DNA of 64,000 nucleotides, from NCBI GenBank assembly GCA_031396695.1, contig JANNLG010000171.1, forward strand, positions 6,053 through 70,052. Reading direction: 5' to 3'. Shown here piece by piece: positions 3,475 through 38,689 of this stretch. Every line of letters starts with the position of its first letter. Position 1 is the stretch's first letter. A program made the translations under genes and the position numbers. The notes under the pieces were generated by a model. The model saw only the letters and a program-made list of their open reading frames with translations. It had not been told where the DNA came from and made no database searches. This DNA comes from Deltaproteobacteria bacterium (GTDB taxonomy: Bacteria; Myxococcota_A; UBA9160; SZUA-336).

Positions 3475-4425
3475 ATGGCCAAACCCTTCCGCTTCGCGGT
3501 GCAGGTCTCGACGCTCCCCGCCGACGGCTGGATCGAGCGCGTGCGCTCGTACGAGCGACTCGGCTTCTCCACGGTCTTCTGCCCCGATCACTTCGGGCCG
3601 CAGTGGGATCCGACTGCGCTGCTCGCGGCGGCCGCCGCGGTCACGACACGACTCAATGTCGGGTCGCTGGTGTACGACGTCGACTACCGCCACCCCGTGA
3701 TCCACGCCAAGGGCGCCGCGACGATCCAGCTGCTCTCCGGCGGGCGGCACGAGTTCGGCATCGGCGCGGGTTGGATGCAGACCGACTACGACGAGGCGGG
3801 CATGCCTTACGACCGCCCAGGCCTGCGCATCGAGCGGCTCGACGAGGCGCTGCAGATCATCAAGAGCATGTGGGAGAACGAACGCACCACGTTCTCGGGC
3901 AAGCACTACAAGATCACCAACATCGCGAAGGCCGCCGAGCTGCCGGCCGGCGCGCGGCCCAAGATCCTGATCGGCGGTGGAGGACCGCGCGTGTTGCGGC
4001 TCGCGGGCCGGCACGCCGACATCGTCGGCATCAATCCGAGCCTGCCCGAGGGCAAGATCACGCGAGACAGTGCCGCCGATCTCGCGCCCGAGCGGCTCGA
4101 CGAGAAGCTGCGCCACGTGCGCGCGGGCGCGGAGGCCGCGGGCCGACGTTTCGACGAGATCGAGCTGAACTCGCTGACCTTCGTGGTGGCGATCACGGAT
4201 GATGCCTCGGGCCTGCGCGCGGGCCTGGCCGCGAACAGCGGAATGTCGGTCGAGCAGGTCGCGAACTGCCCGATCTTCCTGACCGGCTCCGCGGCGGAGA
4301 TCCGCGACGGGCTCGAGAAGCGGCGCGAGCGCTACGGGCTCTCGTACATCGTGATCCAGGGCCGCGATCCGGCCATGGTCGAGAAGTTCGCCGAGCTGAT
4401 CGTGGCGCCGCTGTCCGGCAAGTGA
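3475..4425 (+). CDS. Luciferase-like monooxygenase (LLM) family flavin/F420-dependent oxidoreductase.
   Basis: ATG at 3475 (MAKPFRFAVQVSTLP...) after trimming the 3292 ORF, which overlapped ndh. TIM-barrel LLM motifs are present (GFSTVFCPDHF, IGAGW, KILIGGGGPRVLRLAGRHADIVGIN). Confidence 0.8.
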   Translation: MAKPFRFAVQVSTLPADGWIERVRSYERLGFSTVFCPDHFGPQWDPTALLAAAAAVTTRLNVGSLVYDVDYRHPVIHAKGAATIQLLSGGRHEFGIGAGWMQTDYDEAGMPYDRPGLRIERLDEALQIIKSMWENERTTFSGKHYKITNIAKAAELPAGARPKILIGGGGPRVLRLAGRHADIVGINPSLPEGKITRDSAADLAPERLDEKLRHVRAGAEAAGRRFDEIELNSLTFVVAITDDASGLRAGLAANSGMSVEQVANCPIFLTGSAAEIRDGLEKRRERYGLSYIVIQGRDPAMVEKFAELIVAPLSGK

Positions 4426-4473
4426 CGCGCGCGAACGAGCGAGCGCATGCGCTAGCAACTTTGCCTCAAGCGG

Positions 4474-7400
4474 GTGCGCGACACCTCCGATAACTTCGTG
4501 GACATGAGCGCCACGCTGGGGACGGACCCGCCGCTCTGGGAGCGCTACACCCGAACGCACGGCCGCGTGCACCTGACGGGTCTGCAAGCGCTGCTGCGCA
4601 TGACGCTCGACCAGCTGCGCAGCGACGCGCGCGCAGGGCTGCGCACCGGCGCGTTCTTCTCCGGCTATCCGGGTTCTCCGCTCGCGGGGCTGGACGGAAT
4701 GCTGCGCAGCCTGGCGCCGCTGCTCGCGCGCTCGGACGTGCGGCTCGCGCCGGGTCTGAACGAAGAGCTCGCGGCCAGCGCGGTGGCGGGCACGCAGCTC
4801 GTCGAGACCTTCCCGCACGCCCGCTACAACGGCGTGCTCGGGGTCTGGTTCGGCAAGGCGCCCGGTCTCGATCGCGCGATCGACGCGCTGCGCCACGCCA
4901 ATTTCGTGGGCACCGGACGGCAGGGCGGTGCGCTGGCGGTCGTGGGCGACGATCCGTTCTGCAAGAGCTCGTCGCTGCCGAGCCACAGCGAGCACGCCTT
5001 CGCGCACGCCTACATTCCGTTGTTCGCGCCGGCCGACCCGGGCGACGTGCTGCGCCTCGGACGGCTGGCGTTCGCGCTCTCGCGCTACACCGGATTGTGG
5101 AGCGGACTGCGCATGGTGGCCGACGTGGCCGACTCGGGCCGGATCGTCACGCTCGCCGACGCTGAGCCCGCGCTCGTGCTGCCGGAGTTCGTGAATCCGG
5201 CCGGCCGGCCGGCTCGGCGCATCGACACGAATCTGCTGCCGCCGAACGTGCTGCGCATCGAGCAGGATCTGGTCTTCGGCAGACTCGAAGCCGTGCACCG
5301 CTTCGCGCGCGCGAACGGCTTGAATCCGATCACGTCGAAGCACGCGCGCGATCGCGTGGGCCTCGTCGCTTCGGGCTCGCTCTACCGCGAGCTCGAGAGC
5401 GCGCTCGCGCTGCTCGGCCTCGACGAGCCCGAGCGCGAGCGACTCGGCGTGCGGCTGCTCAAGCTCGACCTGGTCTGGCCGCTCGAGACCGAGCGCATGC
5501 GCGAGTTCGCATCCGGACTCGAGGCGATCGTGGTGGTGGACTCGCGCCGTGCCTGGCTCGAGGAGCAGGTGCGCGCGGCGTTGTACGAGGGCGGGTCGCG
5601 CGCGCGCGTGCTCGGCCAGCACGACGAGCGCGGCGCGGCCTGGCTCGCGCGCCGCCACGAGCTCACCGGCGGTACGCTCGCGCAGGATCTCGCGCCCTGG
5701 CTGGGCGAGAAGCTCGGCGAGCCGAAGCTGGTTTCTCGCCTCGCGCCGCTCGAAGCCGCGCTCGCGCGCGCGTCCCACGCGGCCGAACCGTCGCGCGCGC
5801 CGCACTTCTGCAGCGGCTGTCCGCACTCGTCGTCGACCAAGCTGCCCGAGGGCTCGCTCGCCGGCGGCGGCATCGGCTGTCACACCATGGCGCTGCTCAT
5901 GCCCGAGCGCGCAGTGCGGCTGCTCGGCGCGATGGGTTCGGAGGGTGCGCACTGGATCGGTCTCGCGCCCTACACCGAGACGCGACACCTGTTCCAGAAC
6001 CTGGGCGACGGCACCTACTTCCACTCCGGCCGGCTGGCGGTTCGCGCCTGCGTCGAGGCCGGTGCGACGATCACCTTCAAGCTGCTCTGGAACGGAGTCG
6101 TCGCGATGACCGGCGGCCAGCACGCCGTGGGCGCCAAGCCGCTCGCGGCGCTGGTGCGGGATCTGCTGGCCGACGGGGTGCTCTGCGTGGTGGCGATGAG
6201 CGACGACCGCGAGGTCGCCGCGCTCGAAACCTACGAGCCGCGTCTTCGGGTGGTGGACCGGAACGGCTGGGACGGCGCCATGCGCGAGCTGCGCGAGCAG
6301 AGTGGCGTCAGCGTCATGATCTGGGACGAGCTGTGCGCGAACGAGAAGCAGCGGCTCGAACGCCGCGGCGTGCTCGCTCGGCCGAGCGCGCGCGTGGTGA
6401 TCAACGAAGACGTGTGCGAGGGCTGCGGCGACTGCGGCGTCAAGTCTTCGTGCGTGTCGCTGCGGCCGGTCGAGACCGCGCTCGGCCGCAAGACGCGCGT
6501 GCACGCGGGCTCGTGCAGCGACGATCGCGCCTGCCTCGACGGGGACTGCCCGGCGTTCCTCTCGGTCGAGGGTGCGACGGCCGCAGCGCTGCCCTTCGAG
6601 TCCCTGCTGACGGGGCCGCTGCCCGAGCCGCCCGCGCCGATCTGGGACGGCGATCGCTACGAGCTGCAGCTGGTCGGCATCGGCAGCACGGGCGTGGTCA
6701 CGATCGACGCGCTGCTGGTGCGCGCCGCCGAGCACGACGGCTTGTACGCGATGCACCTCGACCAGACCGGCCTCGCGCAGCGCGGCGGCAAGGTCGTGTC
6801 GCACTGCGTGCTCGCGCGCACCGAACTGACGGGCAGCCCGCGCATCGAGCCGGGCCGCGCGGACGTGCTGCTCGCCTTCGATCCGCTCGGCTCCTCGGAT
6901 CGCGACGCACTGCGCGCGCTCGACCCGGGCCGCACGCGCGCGGTGGTGCACGAGCTGTACGTGCCGACCGGCGCCGACGTGGGCGCGCCCGGCTTCCAGC
7001 CGCCCGACCTCTCCTTGCTGATCGAGCCGCTGCGCGAAGCCACGCGCTCGCTCGAGCGCGTTCCCGCGGAGCTGCTCGCGGAAGTCGCGCTCGGCCAGTC
7101 GCTGTCGGCGAATCTGGTGCTGCTCGGCTTCGCCTGGCAGCGCGGACTCGTGCCGGTCTCGCGACTCGCGCTCGAACGCGCGGTGCGAGAGAACGGTGTC
7201 GCGGTCGAGGCCAACCTGCGCGCGATCGCGCTCGGCCGCGCGGCCGCGGTCGACGCGGAGCTGGTCGCGAAGCTCTTGCACGACGCGACTCCGCCGGCGA
7301 TCGGCGACGAGCCGGCGCTCGATCGCGCCGCGCGCGCGCTCGGTCCGGCCTGGAGCGCGGTGCACGAAGCGCTCGGCCGCTTCCAGCACGCGAAGGACTC

Positions 7401-8031
7401 CGATCGCGTCACTTCGCTGATCGCATCGTTCGCGGCCGATCTGGTCGACTACCAGGGCAAGCGGCTGGCGTCGCGCTACTGCGCGCGCGTCGCGCGCGTG
7501 GCCGAGGCCGCGGCCGCCGTCGATCCGGAATCGCTCGCGCTCACCGAAGCCGCTTCGCGCGAGCTCTACCGCGTGCTCGCGTACAAGGACGAGTACGAGG
7601 TCGCGCGGCTCTTGCTGCGCGGTCCGCACCGGCGCTGGCTGCGGCGCCATTCCGCGCACCAGCCGAGCATCCGCTACCACCTGCACCCGCCGCTGCTGCG
7701 CGCGCTGGGCTTGAAATCGAAGCTCGCGCTCGGAGCGTGGATCGAGCCGGTCTTCGCCGCGCTCGCGGCCGCGCGCCGGTTGCGCGGAACCGCGCTCGAT
7801 CCGTTCGGCTGGACGCGCGCGCGCCGGCTCGAGCGCGAGCTCGCGAGCTGGTACGAGGGCGTGCTCGACGCGGTCGCCGCGCACGTGCGCGCCGAGAATC
7901 GCGCGGAAGCGCTCGAAATCGTGCGGCTGGCCGAGGGCATCCGCGGCTACGAGGGGATCAAGGAAGCGCGCGCCGCCGAGCTGCGGCCGATCATCGAGCG
8001 CAAGCTCGCGGCCCTCGTCGCGCCTCGCTGA
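4474..8031 (+). CDS. Indolepyruvate:ferredoxin oxidoreductase family protein (fused IorA/IorB, about 1180 aa). An alternative ATG at 4504 is possible.
   Basis: It has TPP-enzyme motifs and 4Fe-4S cysteine clusters (CSGCPHSS, CEGCGDCGVKSSC, CSDDRACLDGDCP), and the length matches the single-chain IOR family. The huge ORF 3418..7884 on the opposite strand is antisense junk. Confidence 0.9.
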   Translation: MRDTSDNFVDMSATLGTDPPLWERYTRTHGRVHLTGLQALLRMTLDQLRSDARAGLRTGAFFSGYPGSPLAGLDGMLRSLAPLLARSDVRLAPGLNEELAASAVAGTQLVETFPHARYNGVLGVWFGKAPGLDRAIDALRHANFVGTGRQGGALAVVGDDPFCKSSSLPSHSEHAFAHAYIPLFAPADPGDVLRLGRLAFALSRYTGLWSGLRMVADVADSGRIVTLADAEPALVLPEFVNPAGRPARRIDTNLLPPNVLRIEQDLVFGRLEAVHRFARANGLNPITSKHARDRVGLVASGSLYRELESALALLGLDEPERERLGVRLLKLDLVWPLETERMREFASGLEAIVVVDSRRAWLEEQVRAALYEGGSRARVLGQHDERGAAWLARRHELTGGTLAQDLAPWLGEKLGEPKLVSRLAPLEAALARASHAAEPSRAPHFCSGCPHSSSTKLPEGSLAGGGIGCHTMALLMPERAVRLLGAMGSEGAHWIGLAPYTETRHLFQNLGDGTYFHSGRLAVRACVEAGATITFKLLWNGVVAMTGGQHAVGAKPLAALVRDLLADGVLCVVAMSDDREVAALETYEPRLRVVDRNGWDGAMRELREQSGVSVMIWDELCANEKQRLERRGVLARPSARVVINEDVCEGCGDCGVKSSCVSLRPVETALGRKTRVHAGSCSDDRACLDGDCPAFLSVEGATAAALPFESLLTGPLPEPPAPIWDGDRYELQLVGIGSTGVVTIDALLVRAAEHDGLYAMHLDQTGLAQRGGKVVSHCVLARTELTGSPRIEPGRADVLLAFDPLGSSDRDALRALDPGRTRAVVHELYVPTGADVGAPGFQPPDLSLLIEPLREATRSLERVPAELLAEVALGQSLSANLVLLGFAWQRGLVPVSRLALERAVRENGVAVEANLRAIALGRAAAVDAELVAKLLHDATPPAIGDEPALDRAARALGPAWSAVHEALGRFQHAKDSDRVTSLIASFAADLVDYQGKRLASRYCARVARVAEAAAAVDPESLALTEAASRELYRVLAYKDEYEVARLLLRGPHRRWLRRHSAHQPSIRYHLHPPLLRALGLKSKLALGAWIEPVFAALAAARRLRGTALDPFGWTRARRLERELASWYEGVLDAVAAHVRAENRAEALEIVRLAEGIRGYEGIKEARAAELRPIIERKLAALVAPR

Positions 8032-8045
8032 GCTATCCTGCCGCC

Positions 8046-8264
8046 GTGTCGGAGTGGCTGCGAATCGCCCGCGAGCCGTCGGTCGTGCGACGTGCGTTTC
8101 GAACCATGCTCGTGGTCGGCGCGATCCTGATCGCCATCAATCACGGCGACGCGTTGCTCTCGGGTCAGCTCGACGCCGACCGCGTGTTCAAGATCTGCCT
8201 GACGTTGCTCGTCCCGTACGGCGTCTCGACCACCTCGAGCGTCGCCGCGCTGCGCTCGAGGTAA
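8046..8264 (+). CDS. NrtS-like small two-TM membrane protein (putative nitrate/nitrite transporter NrtS family).
   Basis: The C-terminal 72 codons of the spurious ORF 6333..8264 begin at a GTG 14 nt after the IOR stop: VSEWLRIAREPSVVRRAFRTMLVVGAILIAINHGDALLSGQLDADRVFKICLTLLVPYGVSTTSS. The AINHG-x-ALL-x-G...LT-x-LVPY-x-VS pattern matches NrtS proteins from memory. Confidence 0.5.
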   Translation: MSEWLRIAREPSVVRRAFRTMLVVGAILIAINHGDALLSGQLDADRVFKICLTLLVPYGVSTTSSVAALRSR

Positions 8265-8339: not shown

Positions 8340-8933
8340 CTACCCGCCCGCGAGAAGTTCATCGCAGTCGTCGACGCGCAGACTCGTGGCCAGCAGCAGG
8401 CGCGTTGCGTCGGCGCGCATCGCGAACAGCGACGTGGCGTCGGCGCCGCTGACGGTGGACTCGGCGGATTCGACCCCGAGCGCTTGACCCGCGATCGTGA
8501 TGCAGAGCCACTTCTCGCGCGCTTCGAGGCGCCGATCGTAGCGGTCGATCAGCCCGCGCAGCTCGCCGTACACGATGCGATTCGCAGCGATCAGCGCGAA
8601 CGGCGCAGACAGATTCGCGATCTGGAGCTCGGACACGGAGCCGTACACGCTCTGATCGGGGTGCGCGCGCAGGTACTCCCGCGTCGAAGCGAAGCCGACC
8701 GCCGAGAGCGTCGCATTCACCGGCTCGTCGCCGAAGTCCTGGCTCTCGATCTTCGCGACCAGGTACGTGCCCTCGACCGGACCGTCGAGCGAGTAGCGCA
8801 CCACGTGCTCGTTCGTCTCGACCACGAGCTCGCCGCCTTCGAACACCGGGGCGAGTGGATTCGTGCGCAGATATCGCACCGCGAAGTGCCCCGCCACCAT
8901 CAGCGCGACGACCAGCAACGCCGTTTTCCACAT
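8340..8933 (-). CDS. Hypothetical membrane-anchored protein (N-terminal TM helix).
   Basis: ATG at 8933..8931 (MWKTALLVVALMVAGHFAVRYL...). The 77 codons upstream in the ORF are junk. Divergent from xth with an 85-bp spacer. Confidence 0.5.
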   Translation of the reverse strand: MWKTALLVVALMVAGHFAVRYLRTNPLAPVFEGGELVVETNEHVVRYSLDGPVEGTYLVAKIESQDFGDEPVNATLSAVGFASTREYLRAHPDQSVYGSVSELQIANLSAPFALIAANRIVYGELRGLIDRYDRRLEAREKWLCITIAGQALGVESAESTVSGADATSLFAMRADATRLLLATSLRVDDCDELLAGG

Positions 8934-9018
8934 TTCTACGTATCGGCGCGCCGGGGCTCGAGCAAGAGGCGAGAAGCCGCAGTTGCACACGCGTGACGGT
9001 CCACTCAATATCGCGCAC

Positions 9019-9786
9019 GTGTTGCTTCTCTCCTGGAACGTGAATGGGCTGCGCGCCGCCGGCCGCGGCGGTTTTCTGGACTGGTTCGCAGGCCAGCGCC
9101 CGTTCGCGGTGTGCGTGCAGGAGATCAAGGCTCGGCCCGAGCAGCTCTCGGACGAGCTGCGCAACCCGCACGGCTACCACGCCTACTACCACTCGGCCGA
9201 GACGCCTGGCTACAGCGGTGTGGCCACCTTCACGCGTGAAGAGCCGCTCGCGGTGGTGCACGGCATCGGCTCGAAAGAGTTCGACCGCGAGGGCCGCGTG
9301 CTGCGCACCGAGTTTCGCGACTTCGTGCTGGTGAACGCGTATTTCCCGAACAGCCAGCGCGACCATGCGCGGCTCGACTACAAGCTGCGCTTCTGCTCGG
9401 CGATGCTGCGGCTGATGAACGGCTATCGGCGCTCCGGCAAGCACGTGCTCTTGTGCGGCGACTACAACATCTCGCACGCCGAGATCGATCTGGCGAACCC
9501 GCGCGAGAACCGCCTGAACGCGGGCTTCCTGCCGGAGGAGCGCGCCTGGATGGATCGCTTCCTGGCACGCCACGGCTGGATCGACACTTTTCGGAGTCGC
9601 TGCCCCGAGCCGGGGCACTACACCTGGTGGAGCAACCGGCCCGGCGTGCGCGAGCGGAACATCGGTTGGCGGCTGGACTACTTCGTCGCGAACCTCGAGC
9701 TGATGGACCGCGTCGCGCGCATCGAGCACCAGACCCAGGTGCGCGGCTCCGACCACTGTCCTGTGGCGCTGAAGGTGCGGGACTAG
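9019..9786 (+). CDS. xth: Exodeoxyribonuclease III (EEP-family AP endonuclease).
   Basis: GTG at 9019 gives VLLLSWNVNGLRAA..., the typical Xth N-terminus, with catalytic motifs CVQEIK, LCGDYNISH and SDHCPV at the C-terminus. About 255 aa. Confidence 0.85.
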   Translation: MLLLSWNVNGLRAAGRGGFLDWFAGQRPFAVCVQEIKARPEQLSDELRNPHGYHAYYHSAETPGYSGVATFTREEPLAVVHGIGSKEFDREGRVLRTEFRDFVLVNAYFPNSQRDHARLDYKLRFCSAMLRLMNGYRRSGKHVLLCGDYNISHAEIDLANPRENRLNAGFLPEERAWMDRFLARHGWIDTFRSRCPEPGHYTWWSNRPGVRERNIGWRLDYFVANLELMDRVARIEHQTQVRGSDHCPVALKVRD

Positions 9787-11592: not shown

Positions 11593-11617
11593 CGCCCGGC
11601 GGCCGATGAGAACCGCA

Positions 11618-12043
11618 ATGACACGGCTCCTGTGTCGCTGCATGGGGATGTCGAGCCAGTGCGTCGCGGATCGGGTCCGCGAGCGCGGACTCGGCGACGT
11701 GGAGTCGATCGCCGCGAGCCTTGGCGCGGGTGGCTGCTGCGGAAGCTGTCGACCCGACCTCGAGGAGATCCTCGCCGACCTGCGCGGGGAGCCATTGCCC
11801 GAACCCGTGCGCCGCGCCAACCGCCTGCGCGGCGAGGCCGAGGCCTTCCGCCGCGTGGAAGCCGTGCTGTTCGGCAGCATCGTCGCGCGCCTGCCGCCGG
11901 GCACGGAGCTCGAGCTCGTTTCCGTATCCGGTTTGCGCGCGGAGCTGCACGTTGCGCACGGGGACTCACCGGAGCTGCGCACGCTGGTCGCCGAACGCCT
12001 GCAGAAGCTCGTCTGCGTCGAGCTCGAGGTGCAGTTCCGCTGA
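11618..12043 (+). CDS. BFD-like [2Fe-2S]-binding domain protein.
   Basis: MTRLLCRCMGMSSQCVADRVRERGLGDVESIAASLGAGGCCGSCRPDLEEIL has the C-x-C...C-x2-C BFD-type motif, with an about 80-aa C-terminal extension. Confidence 0.6.
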   Translation: MTRLLCRCMGMSSQCVADRVRERGLGDVESIAASLGAGGCCGSCRPDLEEILADLRGEPLPEPVRRANRLRGEAEAFRRVEAVLFGSIVARLPPGTELELVSVSGLRAELHVAHGDSPELRTLVAERLQKLVCVELEVQFR

Positions 12044-12884: not shown

Positions 12885-13508
12885 CTGTTCGCGTTGCTCT
12901 TGCTCTTGCCGATCGGTGCGTCCGCGGATCTCGGCCATCGACCGGAAGATCGGGTCACGCTCACACACGTCGACAACCAGGTCATCGCCGTCACCGCGTC
13001 GGGCTTCGCGGCGGTGCTCTCGAAGCTCGAGCTCGGCGAGTCGGTGATCGCGCTGCGCAGTCAGGGCAACGTCGGCGTCGCGGTCACGACGCGGCGCCTG
13101 CTCGCGATCCAGACCCGCGCCGCCAATTTCGTCGAGCTGCGCTACCGCGTTTCCGAGTCCGCGCCGAGCGAGCACGACCTGCAGGTGCGCGACGGCCTGA
13201 TCGTCGCCGCGTTCCCGGCGCGGATCCTCGCCTTCTCGCCGCAGATCGCCGCCTGGCAGGAGTTCGGGCTCGGGCCAGGCGAGAAGCCGATCGAAGTGAT
13301 CGCCGAGCAGAACGTCGCGGTGGTCGTCACGCCGCGCCGCGCGGTCGCGTTCTCGCCGCTCTCCGCCGGCTTCGTGCCTTATCCGCTGACGCCCGGCGAG
13401 GATCCGGAACGCAGCACGCTCGGCGACGACTCGATCACGCTGATCCTTCCGCACCGGGTGCTGATCTTCCGCGCGGGCGACTCGGCCTGGTCGAGCGTCA
13501 ATCGCTGA
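12885..13508 (+). CDS. Hypothetical secreted or lipoprotein-like protein with about 40-aa internal repeats. The start is a non-ATG codon (CTG 12885 or TTG 12894).
   Basis: In-frame continuation after the gloB stop: ...LFALLLLLPIGASA / DLGHRPEDRVTLTHVDNQVIAVTASGFAAV...VGVAVTTRRLLAIQ...LIVAAFPARILAFS...VAVVVTPRRAVAFS...ITLILPHRVLIF. It has a signal-peptide-like N-terminus and 4-5 degenerate repeats. No ATG or GTG is in frame. Confidence 0.5.
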   Translation: MFALLLLLPIGASADLGHRPEDRVTLTHVDNQVIAVTASGFAAVLSKLELGESVIALRSQGNVGVAVTTRRLLAIQTRAANFVELRYRVSESAPSEHDLQVRDGLIVAAFPARILAFSPQIAAWQEFGLGPGEKPIEVIAEQNVAVVVTPRRAVAFSPLSAGFVPYPLTPGEDPERSTLGDDSITLILPHRVLIFRAGDSAWSSVNR

Positions 13509-13653
13509 GATTTCCGAGCTGTCGAGGCGTTGACGATAACCGTCACCGGACTGACGGATCTGGTCCACATCGGGCCCTGCAGCGAGGCCGCGACAGTGTC
13601 GCCAGGCTCGAATATCCGCGGACTTCGTCGCGTCTGGTGCGTATGGCATACGT

Positions 13654-13669
13654 TGGCACGCCTGATGCA
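13654..13669 (+). promoter_or_regulatory. Candidate sigma-54 (-24/-12) promoter.
   Basis: TGGCACG-CCTG-ATGCA, with GG at 13655-56 and GC at 13667-68 at the correct 11-nt spacing. It differs at one position from the TGGCACG-N4-TTGCA consensus, and lies 36 nt upstream of the 13706 ATG. Confidence 0.4.
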
Positions 13670-13705
13670 AATCCTCAGGCTCGAAACAGAGGGGAGCATT
13701 TCGGC

Positions 13706-13930
13706 ATGGCACTGGTCGCGCACACGCTCAGGAATTTCGAGTCCGCGGAGCAGATCGCGGAGCCCGGCCACCCCGAGACGCTCACCCTGCTCGACCTTGT
13801 TTCTGCAATCGCGGACGAGGCCGAGACCGACGAAGAGGTCGTCGCCACGATCCAGCATCTGATCGAGACTGGAAAGGTCACCCTGGTCGGGAACTTCCGC
13901 TCGAACGACGTCGGCCGACGCAAGGACTGA
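13706..13930 (+). CDS. Small acidic hypothetical protein (74 aa).
   Basis: ATG at 13706 preceded by GAGGGGAG. MALVAHTLRNFESAEQIAEPGHPETLTLLDLVSAIADEAETDEEVVATIQHLIETGKVTLVGNFRSNDVGRRKD. Codon usage is protein-like, and it sits in a lower-GC pocket (13509-13940). Confidence 0.5.
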   Translation: MALVAHTLRNFESAEQIAEPGHPETLTLLDLVSAIADEAETDEEVVATIQHLIETGKVTLVGNFRSNDVGRRKD

Positions 13931-13943
13931 GCGCCGCTCAGAC

Positions 13944-15086
13944 CTACAGAGCCTTCGCCGCCTCTTCGAGCGCGACCACCACGTGATAGACGCTGGTCGC
14001 GTTCTGCGCGTCCGAGATCACGCGCCCGTCGCGCGCGAGCTGCTCGAACCAGCCGTGCGTCTTGGGATCGACGTGACGAGCGAAGCAGTAGCGCAAGCCG
14101 GCTTCCAGCTCGCGCCGCGCGATCGCGTCGCCCGTCGCCCGCGCGCGCGCGGCCAGCGCCTTGACGCGCTCGGTCTGCGGCCACAGTCGCTTGGTCACGG
14201 CGAGCGTCCGGCCCTCGGCGTCGATCTGGTCGAAGACTCCGCCGTCGGTGTCGACGCCCAAGCGGCGGCCGAACTCGAAGAGCCGATCGGACAGCGCGCG
14301 CGCCGCGTCGCTCGGCGCGAGCGACTGCAACCGATCGAGCAGCCAGACCCACTCGAAGTGATGCCCGGGCTCGACGATGCGCCCGGCATCGCCCGCGAGC
14401 GGCCGCCAGTGGGAGTCGAAGTGTTCGCCGAGCGCGCCCGTGCGCGCGTCGAGCCAGCGCGCGCCGAGCAGCTCCACGAGCGAGCGCGCGTCGCGCAGCG
14501 CGCCGCTGTCGGGCGCGACCTCGGCCAGCACCAGTAGCGCCTCGACCAAGTGCATGTGCGGGTTCTGTCGCCGCGGCCCCGCGAGCGGCTGCCAGTCCTC
14601 GCTCGCGGTCTCGAAGAAGCCACCCGAAACGGGATCGCGCAGCCGTTCGCGCAGGAGCTCGAGCGTCGCGCTCGCCAGCCGCAGGGACTCCGGCTCGCCG
14701 CTTGCCCGGTGGTGCTCGGCGAGCGCGAAGATCGCGAACGCATGCCCGTACAGATCCTTGCGTCGGTCGAGCGGCGCGCCCGCCTCGTCGGTGGTGGTGA
14801 ACCAACCGCCGAAGCGCGGGTCCCAGAAACGCGCGTGCAGGAACTCGAGTCCGTGCGCCACCGCGTTTCGCGCCCACGCGCCGGCGCCAAGTTCCGACGC
14901 GCGCGTGAACGCGAAGATCTGGCGCGCGTGGACCAGGAGTCGCTTGTGACCGTCGGGCAGCGGCGCCAGATCGGGTCCGAGCCGGTTCCAGTAGCCGCCG
15001 CGGTTGCGATCGAGACCGTGCCGTTCCCAGAGCGGCAGCAGCTCGTCGACCAGATGCGCGCGCAGCGTCAGGCGCGAGTGCTGCAT
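13944..15086 (-). CDS. N-acylglucosamine 2-epimerase (AGE) family epimerase/isomerase.
   Basis: ATG at 15086..15084 (MQHSRLTLRAHLVDELLPLWERHGLDRNRGGYW...). It has the alpha/alpha-6 barrel AGE-family pattern. The upstream 61 codons of the ORF are junk. Confidence 0.8.
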   Translation of the reverse strand: MQHSRLTLRAHLVDELLPLWERHGLDRNRGGYWNRLGPDLAPLPDGHKRLLVHARQIFAFTRASELGAGAWARNAVAHGLEFLHARFWDPRFGGWFTTTDEAGAPLDRRKDLYGHAFAIFALAEHHRASGEPESLRLASATLELLRERLRDPVSGGFFETASEDWQPLAGPRRQNPHMHLVEALLVLAEVAPDSGALRDARSLVELLGARWLDARTGALGEHFDSHWRPLAGDAGRIVEPGHHFEWVWLLDRLQSLAPSDAARALSDRLFEFGRRLGVDTDGGVFDQIDAEGRTLAVTKRLWPQTERVKALAARARATGDAIARRELEAGLRYCFARHVDPKTHGWFEQLARDGRVISDAQNATSVYHVVVALEEAAKAL

Positions 15087-15475: not shown

Positions 15476-15697
15476 TCAGGCGGGGACGGACTCCCCGCCC
15501 GCGAGACAGACGCTCGGGGCGCGCTGGCGGCGCTCGCCGTGGGTCTCGGCGAGCAGATCGTGCACCGTCTCGCGGCAGCCGCCGCAGCTCGAGCCCGCGC
15601 CGCACATCTCGGCGACCTGACAGGGCGTGCGAGCGCCCGCACGCGCGGCGTGCTGGATTTCGCGGTCGGTCACGGCGTGGCAGCTGCACACGATCAT
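15476..15697 (-). CDS. bfd: Bacterioferritin-associated ferredoxin (BFD-like [2Fe-2S] protein).
   Basis: ATG at 15697..15695: MIVCSCHAVTDREIQHAARAGARTPCQVAEMCGAGSSCGGCRETVHDLL shows the classic Bfd C-x-C...C-x2-C pattern and is about 73 aa. Confidence 0.75.
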   Translation of the reverse strand: MIVCSCHAVTDREIQHAARAGARTPCQVAEMCGAGSSCGGCRETVHDLLAETHGERRQRAPSVCLAGGESVPA

Positions 15698-15718
15698 GAC
15701 CGACAGCCTACCTCGGAT

Positions 15719-15737
15719 GATAATGACAATCAATTAC
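15719..15737. promoter_or_regulatory. Fur-box-like operator.
   Basis: GATAATGACAATCAATTAC matches the 19-bp Fur consensus GATAATGATAATCATTATC at about 15 of 19 positions. It lies in a low-GC intergenic region 22 nt upstream of the bfd ATG and is divergent from lemA. Confidence 0.45.
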
Positions 15738-17774: not shown

Positions 17775-18230
17775 TCAGACCCTTTGCTTTTTCTGGCACC
17801 TCGGGCAGATCCCGTACAGGATGTGCCGGTGCTGGGTGAGCACGTAGCCGTGCTCGGCGGCGACCTTGCGCTGCTCTTCCTCGATCGTCTCGCGCTCGAA
17901 CTCGACGATCGCGCCGCAGACCTGACAGATCAGGTGGTCGTGGTGGTGGCCCTCGCGCTCGTAGAGCGTGACGCCGTCGCGGAAGTGATGCGCGCGAGCG
18001 ACGCCCGCCTCGCAGAACAGCTTCAGCGCGCGGTAGACGGTGGCGGCGCCCACGTCCGGGCTCGAGTGCAGGACGGCCTCGTACAGCTCTTCGCTGGTCA
18101 CGTGACCCTTCGCGTGCAGGAACGCGTCGAGGATCGCGTCGCGCTGCTTCGTCTGCTTCAGACCGTGGCGCGAGAGATGCTCCGACAGCTTCTCATGGGC
18201 GCGCCGGTCGGACTCGACCCCGGATGCCAT
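17775..18230 (-). CDS. fur: Fur family transcriptional regulator (Fur/Zur/PerR).
   Basis: ...VTSEELYEAVLHSSPDVGAATVYRALKLFCEAGVARAHHF...HHHDHLICQVCGAIVEF...CPRCQ contains the HHHDH and two CxxC metal sites. Confidence 0.9.
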   Translation of the reverse strand: MASGVESDRRAHEKLSEHLSRHGLKQTKQRDAILDAFLHAKGHVTSEELYEAVLHSSPDVGAATVYRALKLFCEAGVARAHHFRDGVTLYEREGHHHDHLICQVCGAIVEFERETIEEEQRKVAAEHGYVLTQHRHILYGICPRCQKKQRV

Positions 18231-36137: not shown

Positions 36138-37219
36138 ATGAAAGAAACCCTCGAGCGCATCGACGACATCCTCGGATCGCTCCGCGTGGGGATCCTCGCG
36201 ATCGATGCGGACGGCCGGGTCGAGCTCGAGAACCCCGAGGCGAGCCGGATCCTGGGCCAGTCGATCGTGGCCGCGGTCGGCCGCCCGCTCCACCAGGTGC
36301 TCGGCCGCCAGCACCCCGCGAGCGCCCTGCTCGAGACCGCGCTGCGCGAAGGCCGGGCGGTTTCGGAGCACGGCTGCCTAGTGCCCGATCGGATGGGTGG
36401 CCGGCCGCTGGTGGTCGATCTGTCCGCGGCCCCGATCGGACGCGGCAGCGAGGTGCACGGCGCCGTGCTCTCGCTCAGCGACCGCACGATCGGCGTCGAG
36501 CTCGAGGACCTGCTCGGCCAGCGCGCGCGCTCCGAGCTGTTCGCGCAGCTCGCGGCCGGCATCGCGCACGAGCTGCGCAACCCGCTGTCCGGCATTCGCG
36601 GCGCGGCCGACCTGCTGCTGGGCAAGCTCCCCGAGTCGAGCCTCGCGCGCTACCCCGAGCTGATCCGCGCGGAAGTCGATCGCATGCGTCGGCTGCTCGA
36701 CGACCTGGCCGAGCTCACACGCGGCGGCGACCTGCGCCCGCGCCGCGCCAACCTGCACCGCGTGATCGACGACGTGGTCGAGCTGCACAGCCACTCCGAG
36801 ACGTGGCAGGGCATCAAGATCGAACGCAGCTACGACCCGAGCATTCCCGAGTTCGAGTTCGACCCCGACCGCACCACGCAAGTGCTGTTGAACCTGATGC
36901 GCAACGCGGTGCAAGCGATGGCGGGCAGCGGCACGCTCACGCTGCGCACGCGCATCGAGTCGGCGTACCACTTCGAACACGTCGGGCCCGAGCGCGCACG
37001 GCTCGTGCGCATCGACATCCAGGACACCGGCCCCGGCATTCCCGACGAGGACCTGCCGCTCCTGTTCACGCCGTTCTTCACGCGCCGCAGCTCCGGCACC
37101 GGGCTCGGTCTGGCCGTCGCTCAAGCCTGGACCGTGAAGCAGGGCGGGCGGATCCTGGTGCGCAGCCGCGCCGGAGAAGGAACACGCATGCGTGTAGAGC
37201 TGCCCCTCCGGAAGCCGAC

Positions 37220-37223
<4 letters not shown>
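36138..37223 (+). CDS. Sensor histidine kinase (PAS + HisKA + HATPase_c, NtrB-like, apparently cytoplasmic).
   Basis: H-box ...AAGIAHELRNPLSGIRGAADLL..., N-box LLNLMRNAVQAM, and G-boxes DTGPGIPDEDL and SSGTGLGLAVAQ. Confidence 0.85.

Positions 37224-38685
<1,462 letters not shown>

Positions 38686-38689
<4 letters not shown>

Follow-up and report, generated by a model that had tools for sequence, protein, structure and literature searches.

Does the pocket at 13509–13930 of the window (the whole stretch of 64,000 nucleotides that was analysed) hold a genuine gene with a control region of its own, and what class of promoter would drive it? An earlier note, made from the letters of the DNA, had described a stretch of lower GC content containing a sigma-54-type promoter, nested inverted repeats further upstream and a small acidic open reading frame (ORF) of no recognisable family. 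The difference in base composition is readily seen: GC content is 0.60 in 13500–13699, compared to 0.70–0.75 in the flanks. The features on which the argument turns are collected in Table 1.

Table 1. Features of the small gene, its upstream region and its surroundings in the window.
Feature	Position	Strand	Remarks
204-aa protein gene, upstream, syntenic	12894..13508	+	stop 13506–13508, 22 nt before activator site 1
Putative activator site 1, TGACG-ATAAC-CGTCA	13531..13545		perfect interrupted palindrome, centre ~-142
Putative activator site 2, TGACG-GATCT-GGTCC	13552..13566		centre ~-121, starts 21 bp after site 1
Block GAATATCCGCGGACTT	13610..13625		~-55 to -70; consensus attCGcgga.TT (13611–13625), 44 loci
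Block GCGTCTGGTGCGTATG	13630..13645		partly conserved; near-invariant TGC 13638–13640
Candidate sigma-54 -24/-12 element TGGCACGCCTGATGCA	13654–13669	+	GG 13655–56, GC 13667–68, 10 bases between
Predicted transcription start	13680	+	standard sigma-54 geometry, C of GC doublet = -12
Shine-Dalgarno sequence GGGGAG	13691–13696	+	9 nt before ATG
Small ORF, 74 aa	13706..13930	+	pI 4.62; 14 D+E, 6 K+R
N-acylglucosamine 2-epimerase-family gene, convergent	13944..15086	-	ends 13 nt past small-ORF stop
NtrC-type activator gene	37220..38689	+	Response_reg, Sigma54_activat, HTH_8; GAFTGA at 37874

The small ORF and the protein it encodes

The acidic ORF has 59 close homologs of 68–76 aa, sharing 58–90% identity, and the few whose source is named come from metagenome genomes of Myxococcota or 'Deltaproteobacteria'. 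In a comparison of 77 distinct coding sequences with that of the window, the differences number 846, 423 and 1492 at codon positions 1, 2 and 3, respectively, a pattern that indicates a translated gene. In addition, independent gene callers recognised the small ORF as a gene on three further contigs. Judged by these comparisons, the ORF is a real and conserved gene. A 97-aa extension, starting from GTG-13637, was considered and rejected: it would overlap the promoter, and homologs begin at M-[AT]-x-V-A-H.

The conserved core covers residues ~24–64 (TLTLLDLVSAIADEAETDEEVVATIQHLIETGKVTLVGNF). In the alignment the near-invariant part reads PETLTLLDLVxAIADEAETDEEVVATIQHLIETGKVTLVGNF, and the N-terminus and tail are variable. 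When 1.84 billion representative proteins were searched with a profile, 930 clusters (representative clusters at 50% identity) were returned at E<=1e-3, with 111 at E<=1e-10; a second profile search returned no fewer than 2,103 clusters (90% identity), every one unnamed or 'hypothetical' and without a Pfam domain. The window protein and four to five divergent relatives gave no significant match in Pfam, NCBIfam, PHROGs or PADLOC (the sole PADLOC match, at E=0.043, is below significance), and the best match of the small protein in a profile search of PDB sequences was at E=0.4. The statement that the protein has no recognisable family thus holds for curated profiles and PDB sequences alike.

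AlphaFold2, supplied with an alignment of 70 sequences, predicts a two-helix core (pLDDT ~90 for residues ~28–58) with disordered ends. The best Foldseek match, the P-Rex1 DEP1 domain, is non-significant (E=0.63, probability 0.23, TM 0.42), and a first AlphaFold2 model gave no match below E=1 in a Foldseek search of the PDB. As in small winged-helix or DEP-like domains, the two helices are predicted to lead into an extended segment, and the hydrophobic pattern of the core is LLDLV...VVATV..L..SG.V.L.G; the core differs from a winged helix in that ~40 residues are too few for the full fold, and it matches no solved-structure profile.

Members of the family differ at their C-termini. Fifteen of the 70 aligned members (in the clades of 57–62 aa: L058–L099, L104, L100) end in ...AA (typically EVAA, DVAA or SAA), resembling an ssrA-like ClpXP tag; the window protein, unlike these, ends in RRKD. 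The endings suggest that the clades concerned may add proteolytic to transcriptional control.

A sigma-54-type element and its retention among homologs

The candidate promoter element, TGGCACGCCTGATGCA, has the same orientation as the small ORF and ends 36 nt 5' of its ATG. Position, GG-N10-GC spacing and the single mismatch to TGGCACG-N4-TTGCW (11 of 12 consensus bases) are as the earlier note had given them. The -12 element reads ATGC instead of TTGC, and the base following TGGCACG is C where the consensus has a purine. From the predicted start at ~13680 we infer a 26-nt leader; the sequence 'agaggggagc' recurs 5' of the start codon in close relatives. The 64 kb of the window contain no rpoN gene; the activator gene there, with its GAFTGA motif, implies that the genome would possess a sigma-54 system.

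In the window as a whole TGGCACGCCTGATGCA is the sole match with no more than one mismatch; 0.40 such matches are expected by chance, and at least one was present in 32 of 100 shuffles. The same is true of the dyad TGACG-N5-CGTCA that characterises the upstream palindromes: it has one perfect match in the window (site 1), and sequences with one mismatch were found five times, where 4.8 are expected. No other good sigma-54 element or TGACG-N5-CGTCA site lies elsewhere in the window. Within the window, then, matches to promoter and palindrome do not stand out from chance; it is conservation in related loci alone that gives them significance.

To this end loci containing homologs were fetched, 19 from species-representative genomes and 80 from metagenomes, and the 260 nt 5' of each homolog's start were scanned for GG-N10-GC. 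Statistics were calculated for 150 nt of the coding strand in the 82 loci with distinct upstream sequence, and the background was the remaining 0.8 Mb of the same loci, expressed per equivalent stretch. Elements with at least 10 of 12 consensus matches occur in 60 of the 82 loci (0.005 expected per locus), those with at least 11 in 51 (0.0007 expected) and those with at least eight in 80 (0.18 expected), counts that are not of independent events, the loci being phylogenetically related. GG and GC are exactly 10 bases apart in 80 of the 82. This retention speaks for the sigma-54 promoter that the earlier note had proposed. It also bears on the simplest alternative, a chance match devoid of function, which the frequency of such matches in shuffled windows would allow: conservation and spacing over the 82 loci refute it, and the probability that we would assign to it is vanishingly small.

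The element varies between clades. It reads TGGCACG-N4-ATGCT in the Myxococcota clade and TGGCAC/T-N5-TTGCT or TGGTAT-N5-TTGCG in the distant clades of 57–62 aa, with ATGCT, TTGCT, TTGCG and CTGCT as -12 variants. It is kept in clades with unrelated flanking DNA and neighboring genes and with altered leader length, and is found also in loci from further branches (L104–L108). In five very distant members with over-called N-termini, the motif WHxxC is the in-frame translation of TGGCAC-N5-TTGC. Three loci (L016, L060, L100) have weak or degenerate elements at most. Actinomycetota are generally without sigma-54, and the single Acidimicrobiia homolog (L019), upstream of which there is no such promoter element, is a natural control.

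A footprint of the upstream region was obtained by anchoring sequences on the promoter and aligning 44 distinct Myxococcota-clade sequences with MAFFT. The promoter block has the consensus TTGGCACGc.cgATGCTT (13653–13670), with 90–100% conservation per column. Just four intergenic blocks are conserved – the putative activator site, a TTCGCGGA-like block, the trinucleotide TGC and the promoter – and the rest of the region is 30–50% identical.

Could the promoter-like block be something else? It might be the operator of another protein or an element of a leader RNA, the gene being transcribed from a sigma-70-type promoter or by read-through. A scan of 13400–14100 found neither a sigma-70-like promoter nor an intrinsic terminator; sigma-70 promoters are poorly defined in high-GC organisms, so that an empty scan carries little weight, and read-through would be favored by an upstream gene that ends 22 nt before the conserved region with no terminator found. 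Nevertheless, amid changing surroundings it is precisely the sigma-54 signature that is conserved (TGGCAC and TGC, with 10 bp between GG and GC), the 12–131 nt that separate it from the ATG do not fit a translational leader element, and the upstream gene differs between clades. An Rfam scan of the entire window returned no matches, and folding of the transcript revealed no special structure (z = -0.6), on which grounds an RNA element was rejected. We consider an operator or leader element very unlikely, and proceed on the reading of the block as a sigma-54 promoter.

One Myxococcota subclade (L030, L043, L046 and L048) carries a second GG-N10-GC-like element, e.g., TGGCGCGGGGATTGCC, 28 nt 5' of the main one. 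The window has a degenerate remnant, CGTCGCGTCTGGTGCG, at the corresponding position (13630–13645). The second element could represent a promoter in tandem with the main one, or else the site of a regulator.

Upstream palindromes and the search for an activator

The two nested inverted repeats of the earlier note, GACG-ATAAC-CGTC (13532–13544) and CCGTCA-CCGGAC-TGACGG (13540–13557), are both present. Together they resolve into four half-sites, TGACG, CGTCA, TGACG and CGnCC, whose starts are 10, 11 and 10 bp apart, an arrangement that, from the spacing, corresponds to two dyads on one face of the helix. In the 44 Myxococcota-clade loci the palindrome block is the most conserved part of the intergenic region: its consensus is GTTGACGA..a.CGTCACCg..CTGACGga.c.CG.CCaC (window 13529–13568), TTGACG and CGTCACC are 90–100% conserved, the CTGACG of site 2 is near-invariant, and the clade consensus of site 2 is TGACG-N5-CGnCC. 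Each locus contains the composite pattern a single time, 5' of the small gene in every case.

Equally marked is the constancy of spacing. Sites 1 and 2 start 21 bp apart in 43 of 45 distinct loci, and in all 45 the -24 element lies 120–124 bp from site 1; by contrast, anything between 12 and 131 nt separates the -12 element from the start codon. A fixed distance on one side and a leader of free length on the other show palindromes and promoter behaving as one unit. The suggestion that the repeats stand where an enhancer-binding protein would be expected to bind gains accordingly from their fixed distance and their conservation. Sites of this kind are dyads that typically lie ~80–150 bp 5' of the promoter, mostly in more than one copy and in helical phase, and the two dyads centred at ~-142 and ~-121 accord with this.

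Palindromes that begin 22 nt beyond the stop codon of the 204-aa gene, and that can pair as short hairpins, might alternatively serve that gene as a terminator or as a hairpin for RNA stability. Against this, the half-sites are invariant rather than co-varying, no T-run follows them, and their distance from the promoter is fixed. Moreover, the site is retained in L007, L010, L015 and L047, where the 204-aa gene is absent or replaced by a different one, which together with the invariance of the half-sites argues against a terminator role. We regard a role in ending or stabilising the upstream transcript as highly improbable and retain the interpretation of the palindromes as a putative activator site. 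Distant clades carry other upstream repeats, such as TGTCAC-N6-GTGACA in L106, from which it follows that the site of the activator has drifted, or that other activators are used.

Between the palindromes and the promoter, the block at 13610–13625 contains a palindrome, TCCGCGGA (13615–13622), and its position may suit a DNA-bending protein or a second regulator. An IHF site was rejected: the position is typical of such sites, but GAATATCCGCGGACTT fits WATCAANNNNTTR in no register. Elsewhere in the window, TGACGTTGCTCGTCC (8200–8214, + strand) differs by one mismatch from the dyad of the activator site; it falls between the predicted ORFs 4474–8031 and 8340–9164, and such matches are at chance level within the window.

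Which protein would bind the palindromes? The NtrC-type activator to which the earlier note had drawn attention has the domains and the GAFTGA motif expected of its class, and no further sigma-54 activator gene is present in the 64 kb. It overlaps a kinase gene (36138–37223). Recognition of the TGACG-N5-CGTCA sites could fall to this two-component pair, a possibility that draws on its being the sole candidate in the window and on its Fis-type HTH_8 domain, a kind that reads dyads with half-sites of ~5–6 bp. The pair is, however, 23 kb from the small gene, and the palindrome motif recurs neither near 37220–38689 nor 5' of the kinase–activator operon. Nor does any activator gene co-localise with the small gene: no Sigma54_activat homolog was found within ~6 kb of it in any locus with flanks of that length, and a tblastn search with the window activator against all loci gave a single match, to a receiver domain in L096. 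The protein concerned was rejected as a candidate, being a LuxR-type response regulator matched in its receiver domain only. Myxococcota genomes typically encode dozens of sigma-54 activators, and the prior for any single one is consequently low. We judge it quite unlikely that the window pair is the regulator.

Gene neighborhood and a proposed transcription unit

In the Myxococcota clade gene order is collinear: exoIII, cysE, a PD-(D/E)XK protein gene, a BFD-like protein gene, gloB and the 204-aa gene on the 5' side, and the convergent epimerase gene, bfd, lemA and fur after the small gene. The 204-aa protein, with a signal-peptide-like N-terminus and 41–88% identity across the clade, belongs to no Pfam, NCBIfam, PHROGs or PADLOC family. 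Outside the Myxococcota clade neighborhoods are unrelated to one another. By its genomic context, then, the small gene behaves as a stand-alone unit.

Several features of the surroundings are recorded here as observations in their own right. A GC-rich hairpin, CTGAGCG-CC-GCTCAG (13926–13943), spans the stop codon of the small ORF; no T-run follows it, relatives have non-homologous counterparts, and it may be a bidirectional terminator. Iron-related genes recur nearby in separate clades: two BFD-type [2Fe-2S] proteins and Fur in the window clade (11606–12043, 15476–15733, 17775–18230), Fur no more than 3 kb away in L069/L071 (~4200–4617), encapsulated ferritin with encapsulin in L106 (9707–10897), and BolA with glutaredoxin at the locus of P0139. 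This recurrence could be coincidence. Genes for (alpha/alpha)6-barrel enzymes adjoin the small gene in three unrelated clades, namely the GlcNAc 2-epimerase of the window (13944–15086, - strand), a GDE_C glycogen-debranching enzyme (L017, 3915–5894, - strand) and a DUF255/thioredoxin protein with an epimerase-like domain (L067, 466–2541; L070, 2816–4666, + strand); in a fourth locus a GDE_C protein gene is 3 kb away.

Two arrangements place further ORFs directly downstream. In L007 (6143–9219) and L013 (6262–9140), and also in L010, L012 and L015, a co-oriented pair of ORFs is inserted between the small gene and the epimerase gene; from the sequences alone we take the pair to resemble subunits B and A of topoisomerase VI. 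Lying directly 3' and in the same orientation, the pair could be reached by the sigma-54 transcript. In L104 (6215–6403) and L105 (6217–6405) a second conserved ORF, of 62 aa (MHAEGTPRRIWIAGT.IDVWDNPQASFSWTP...), begins ~30 nt after the small gene and may be co-transcribed with it.

The most likely reading of these data is a monocistronic, activator-dependent sigma-54 unit, and we hold with considerable confidence that 13531–13930 forms one such self-contained unit of transcription. Its operation would be as follows. Sigma-54 RNA polymerase would sit as a closed complex on TGGCACG-N4-ATGCA (13654–13669), and an enhancer-binding protein would occupy the four TGACG/CGTCA-type half-sites (13531–13566), arranged as two dyads 21 bp apart. 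On receipt of a signal the activator would assemble and reach the polymerase by looping of the DNA, which the block at 13610–13625 may help. ATP hydrolysis would then open the promoter, transcription would proceed from ~13680 through the 26-nt leader with its GGGGAG, and the 74-aa acidic protein would be translated. Dependence on sigma-54 and on an activator, the start of transcription and looping are here inferred from the elements and their geometry.

Known systems provide a measure of how ordinary this arrangement is. The NtrC site is TGCACC-N5-GGTGCA, from which the window half-sites, TGACG-N5-CGTCA, differ. In the myxobacteria, the activator PexR binds tandem interrupted palindromes, CACCG-n6-CGGTG, located 5' of sigma-54 promoters, and katB and ahpC of Myxococcus xanthus have PexR-linked sigma-54 promoters with upstream activator sites (PMC12754779). 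Compared to these canonical promoters (glnAp2 with NtrC; katB and ahpC with PexR), the unit described here has the same GG-N10-GC arrangement and consensus, yTGGCACGrnnnTTGCw. Here too, interrupted palindromes stand in tandem and in helical phase over 100 bp upstream, the distance between site and promoter is fixed, and a bending protein could act at an intervening conserved block. The half-site sequence is distinct from that of PexR as it is from that of NtrC, there is no adjacent activator gene, the -12 element in this clade is ATGC, and the product is an uncharacterised protein of 74 aa, not an enzyme or an operon. Literature searches found no described sigma-54-dependent family of small proteins and no TGACG-type activator site.

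What might the protein do? Its short two-helix core, invariant residues and lack of enzyme-like features, together with a promoter class that recurs across distant clades whose neighboring genes are unrelated, lead to our best guess: a small binding or regulatory protein that is produced solely on firing of the activator and works through protein–protein contacts. Among the small proteins of sigma-54 regulons are PspA, which acts on PspF, and HrpV, which acts on HrpS. The family shares with them a predicted sigma-54-dependent expression and, plausibly, a mode of action that involves binding another protein; it differs in having no sequence or structural similarity to either, in being much smaller and in having no activator gene beside its own. 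That the protein might exert feedback is pure conjecture. A broader version, in which the protein is a core member of sigma-54 regulons that spans phyla (Myxococcota, Thermodesulfobacteriota and unassigned soil lineages) and acts as a signal-induced feedback modulator of an activator, of sigma-54 or of RNA polymerase, we rate as unlikely; were it true, functional coupling and not shared ancestry would explain why thousands of members have strictly kept the promoter class.

A sigma-54 promoter joined to an activator site is an ordinary device of regulation; it is the cargo that is less ordinary. What is new is a large, unannotated family of small proteins that keeps the sigma-54 promoter class almost everywhere examined, and does so though neighboring genes, leader length and the sequence of the activator site differ. 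So close a tie to a single sigma factor is found in few gene families. With its clear limits, the 36-bp site, together with its 120–124-bp geometry, is directly usable as a probe for finding the activator, and the tightness of the tie to sigma-54 offers a clean entry point to questions of signal and activator in uncultured Myxococcota.
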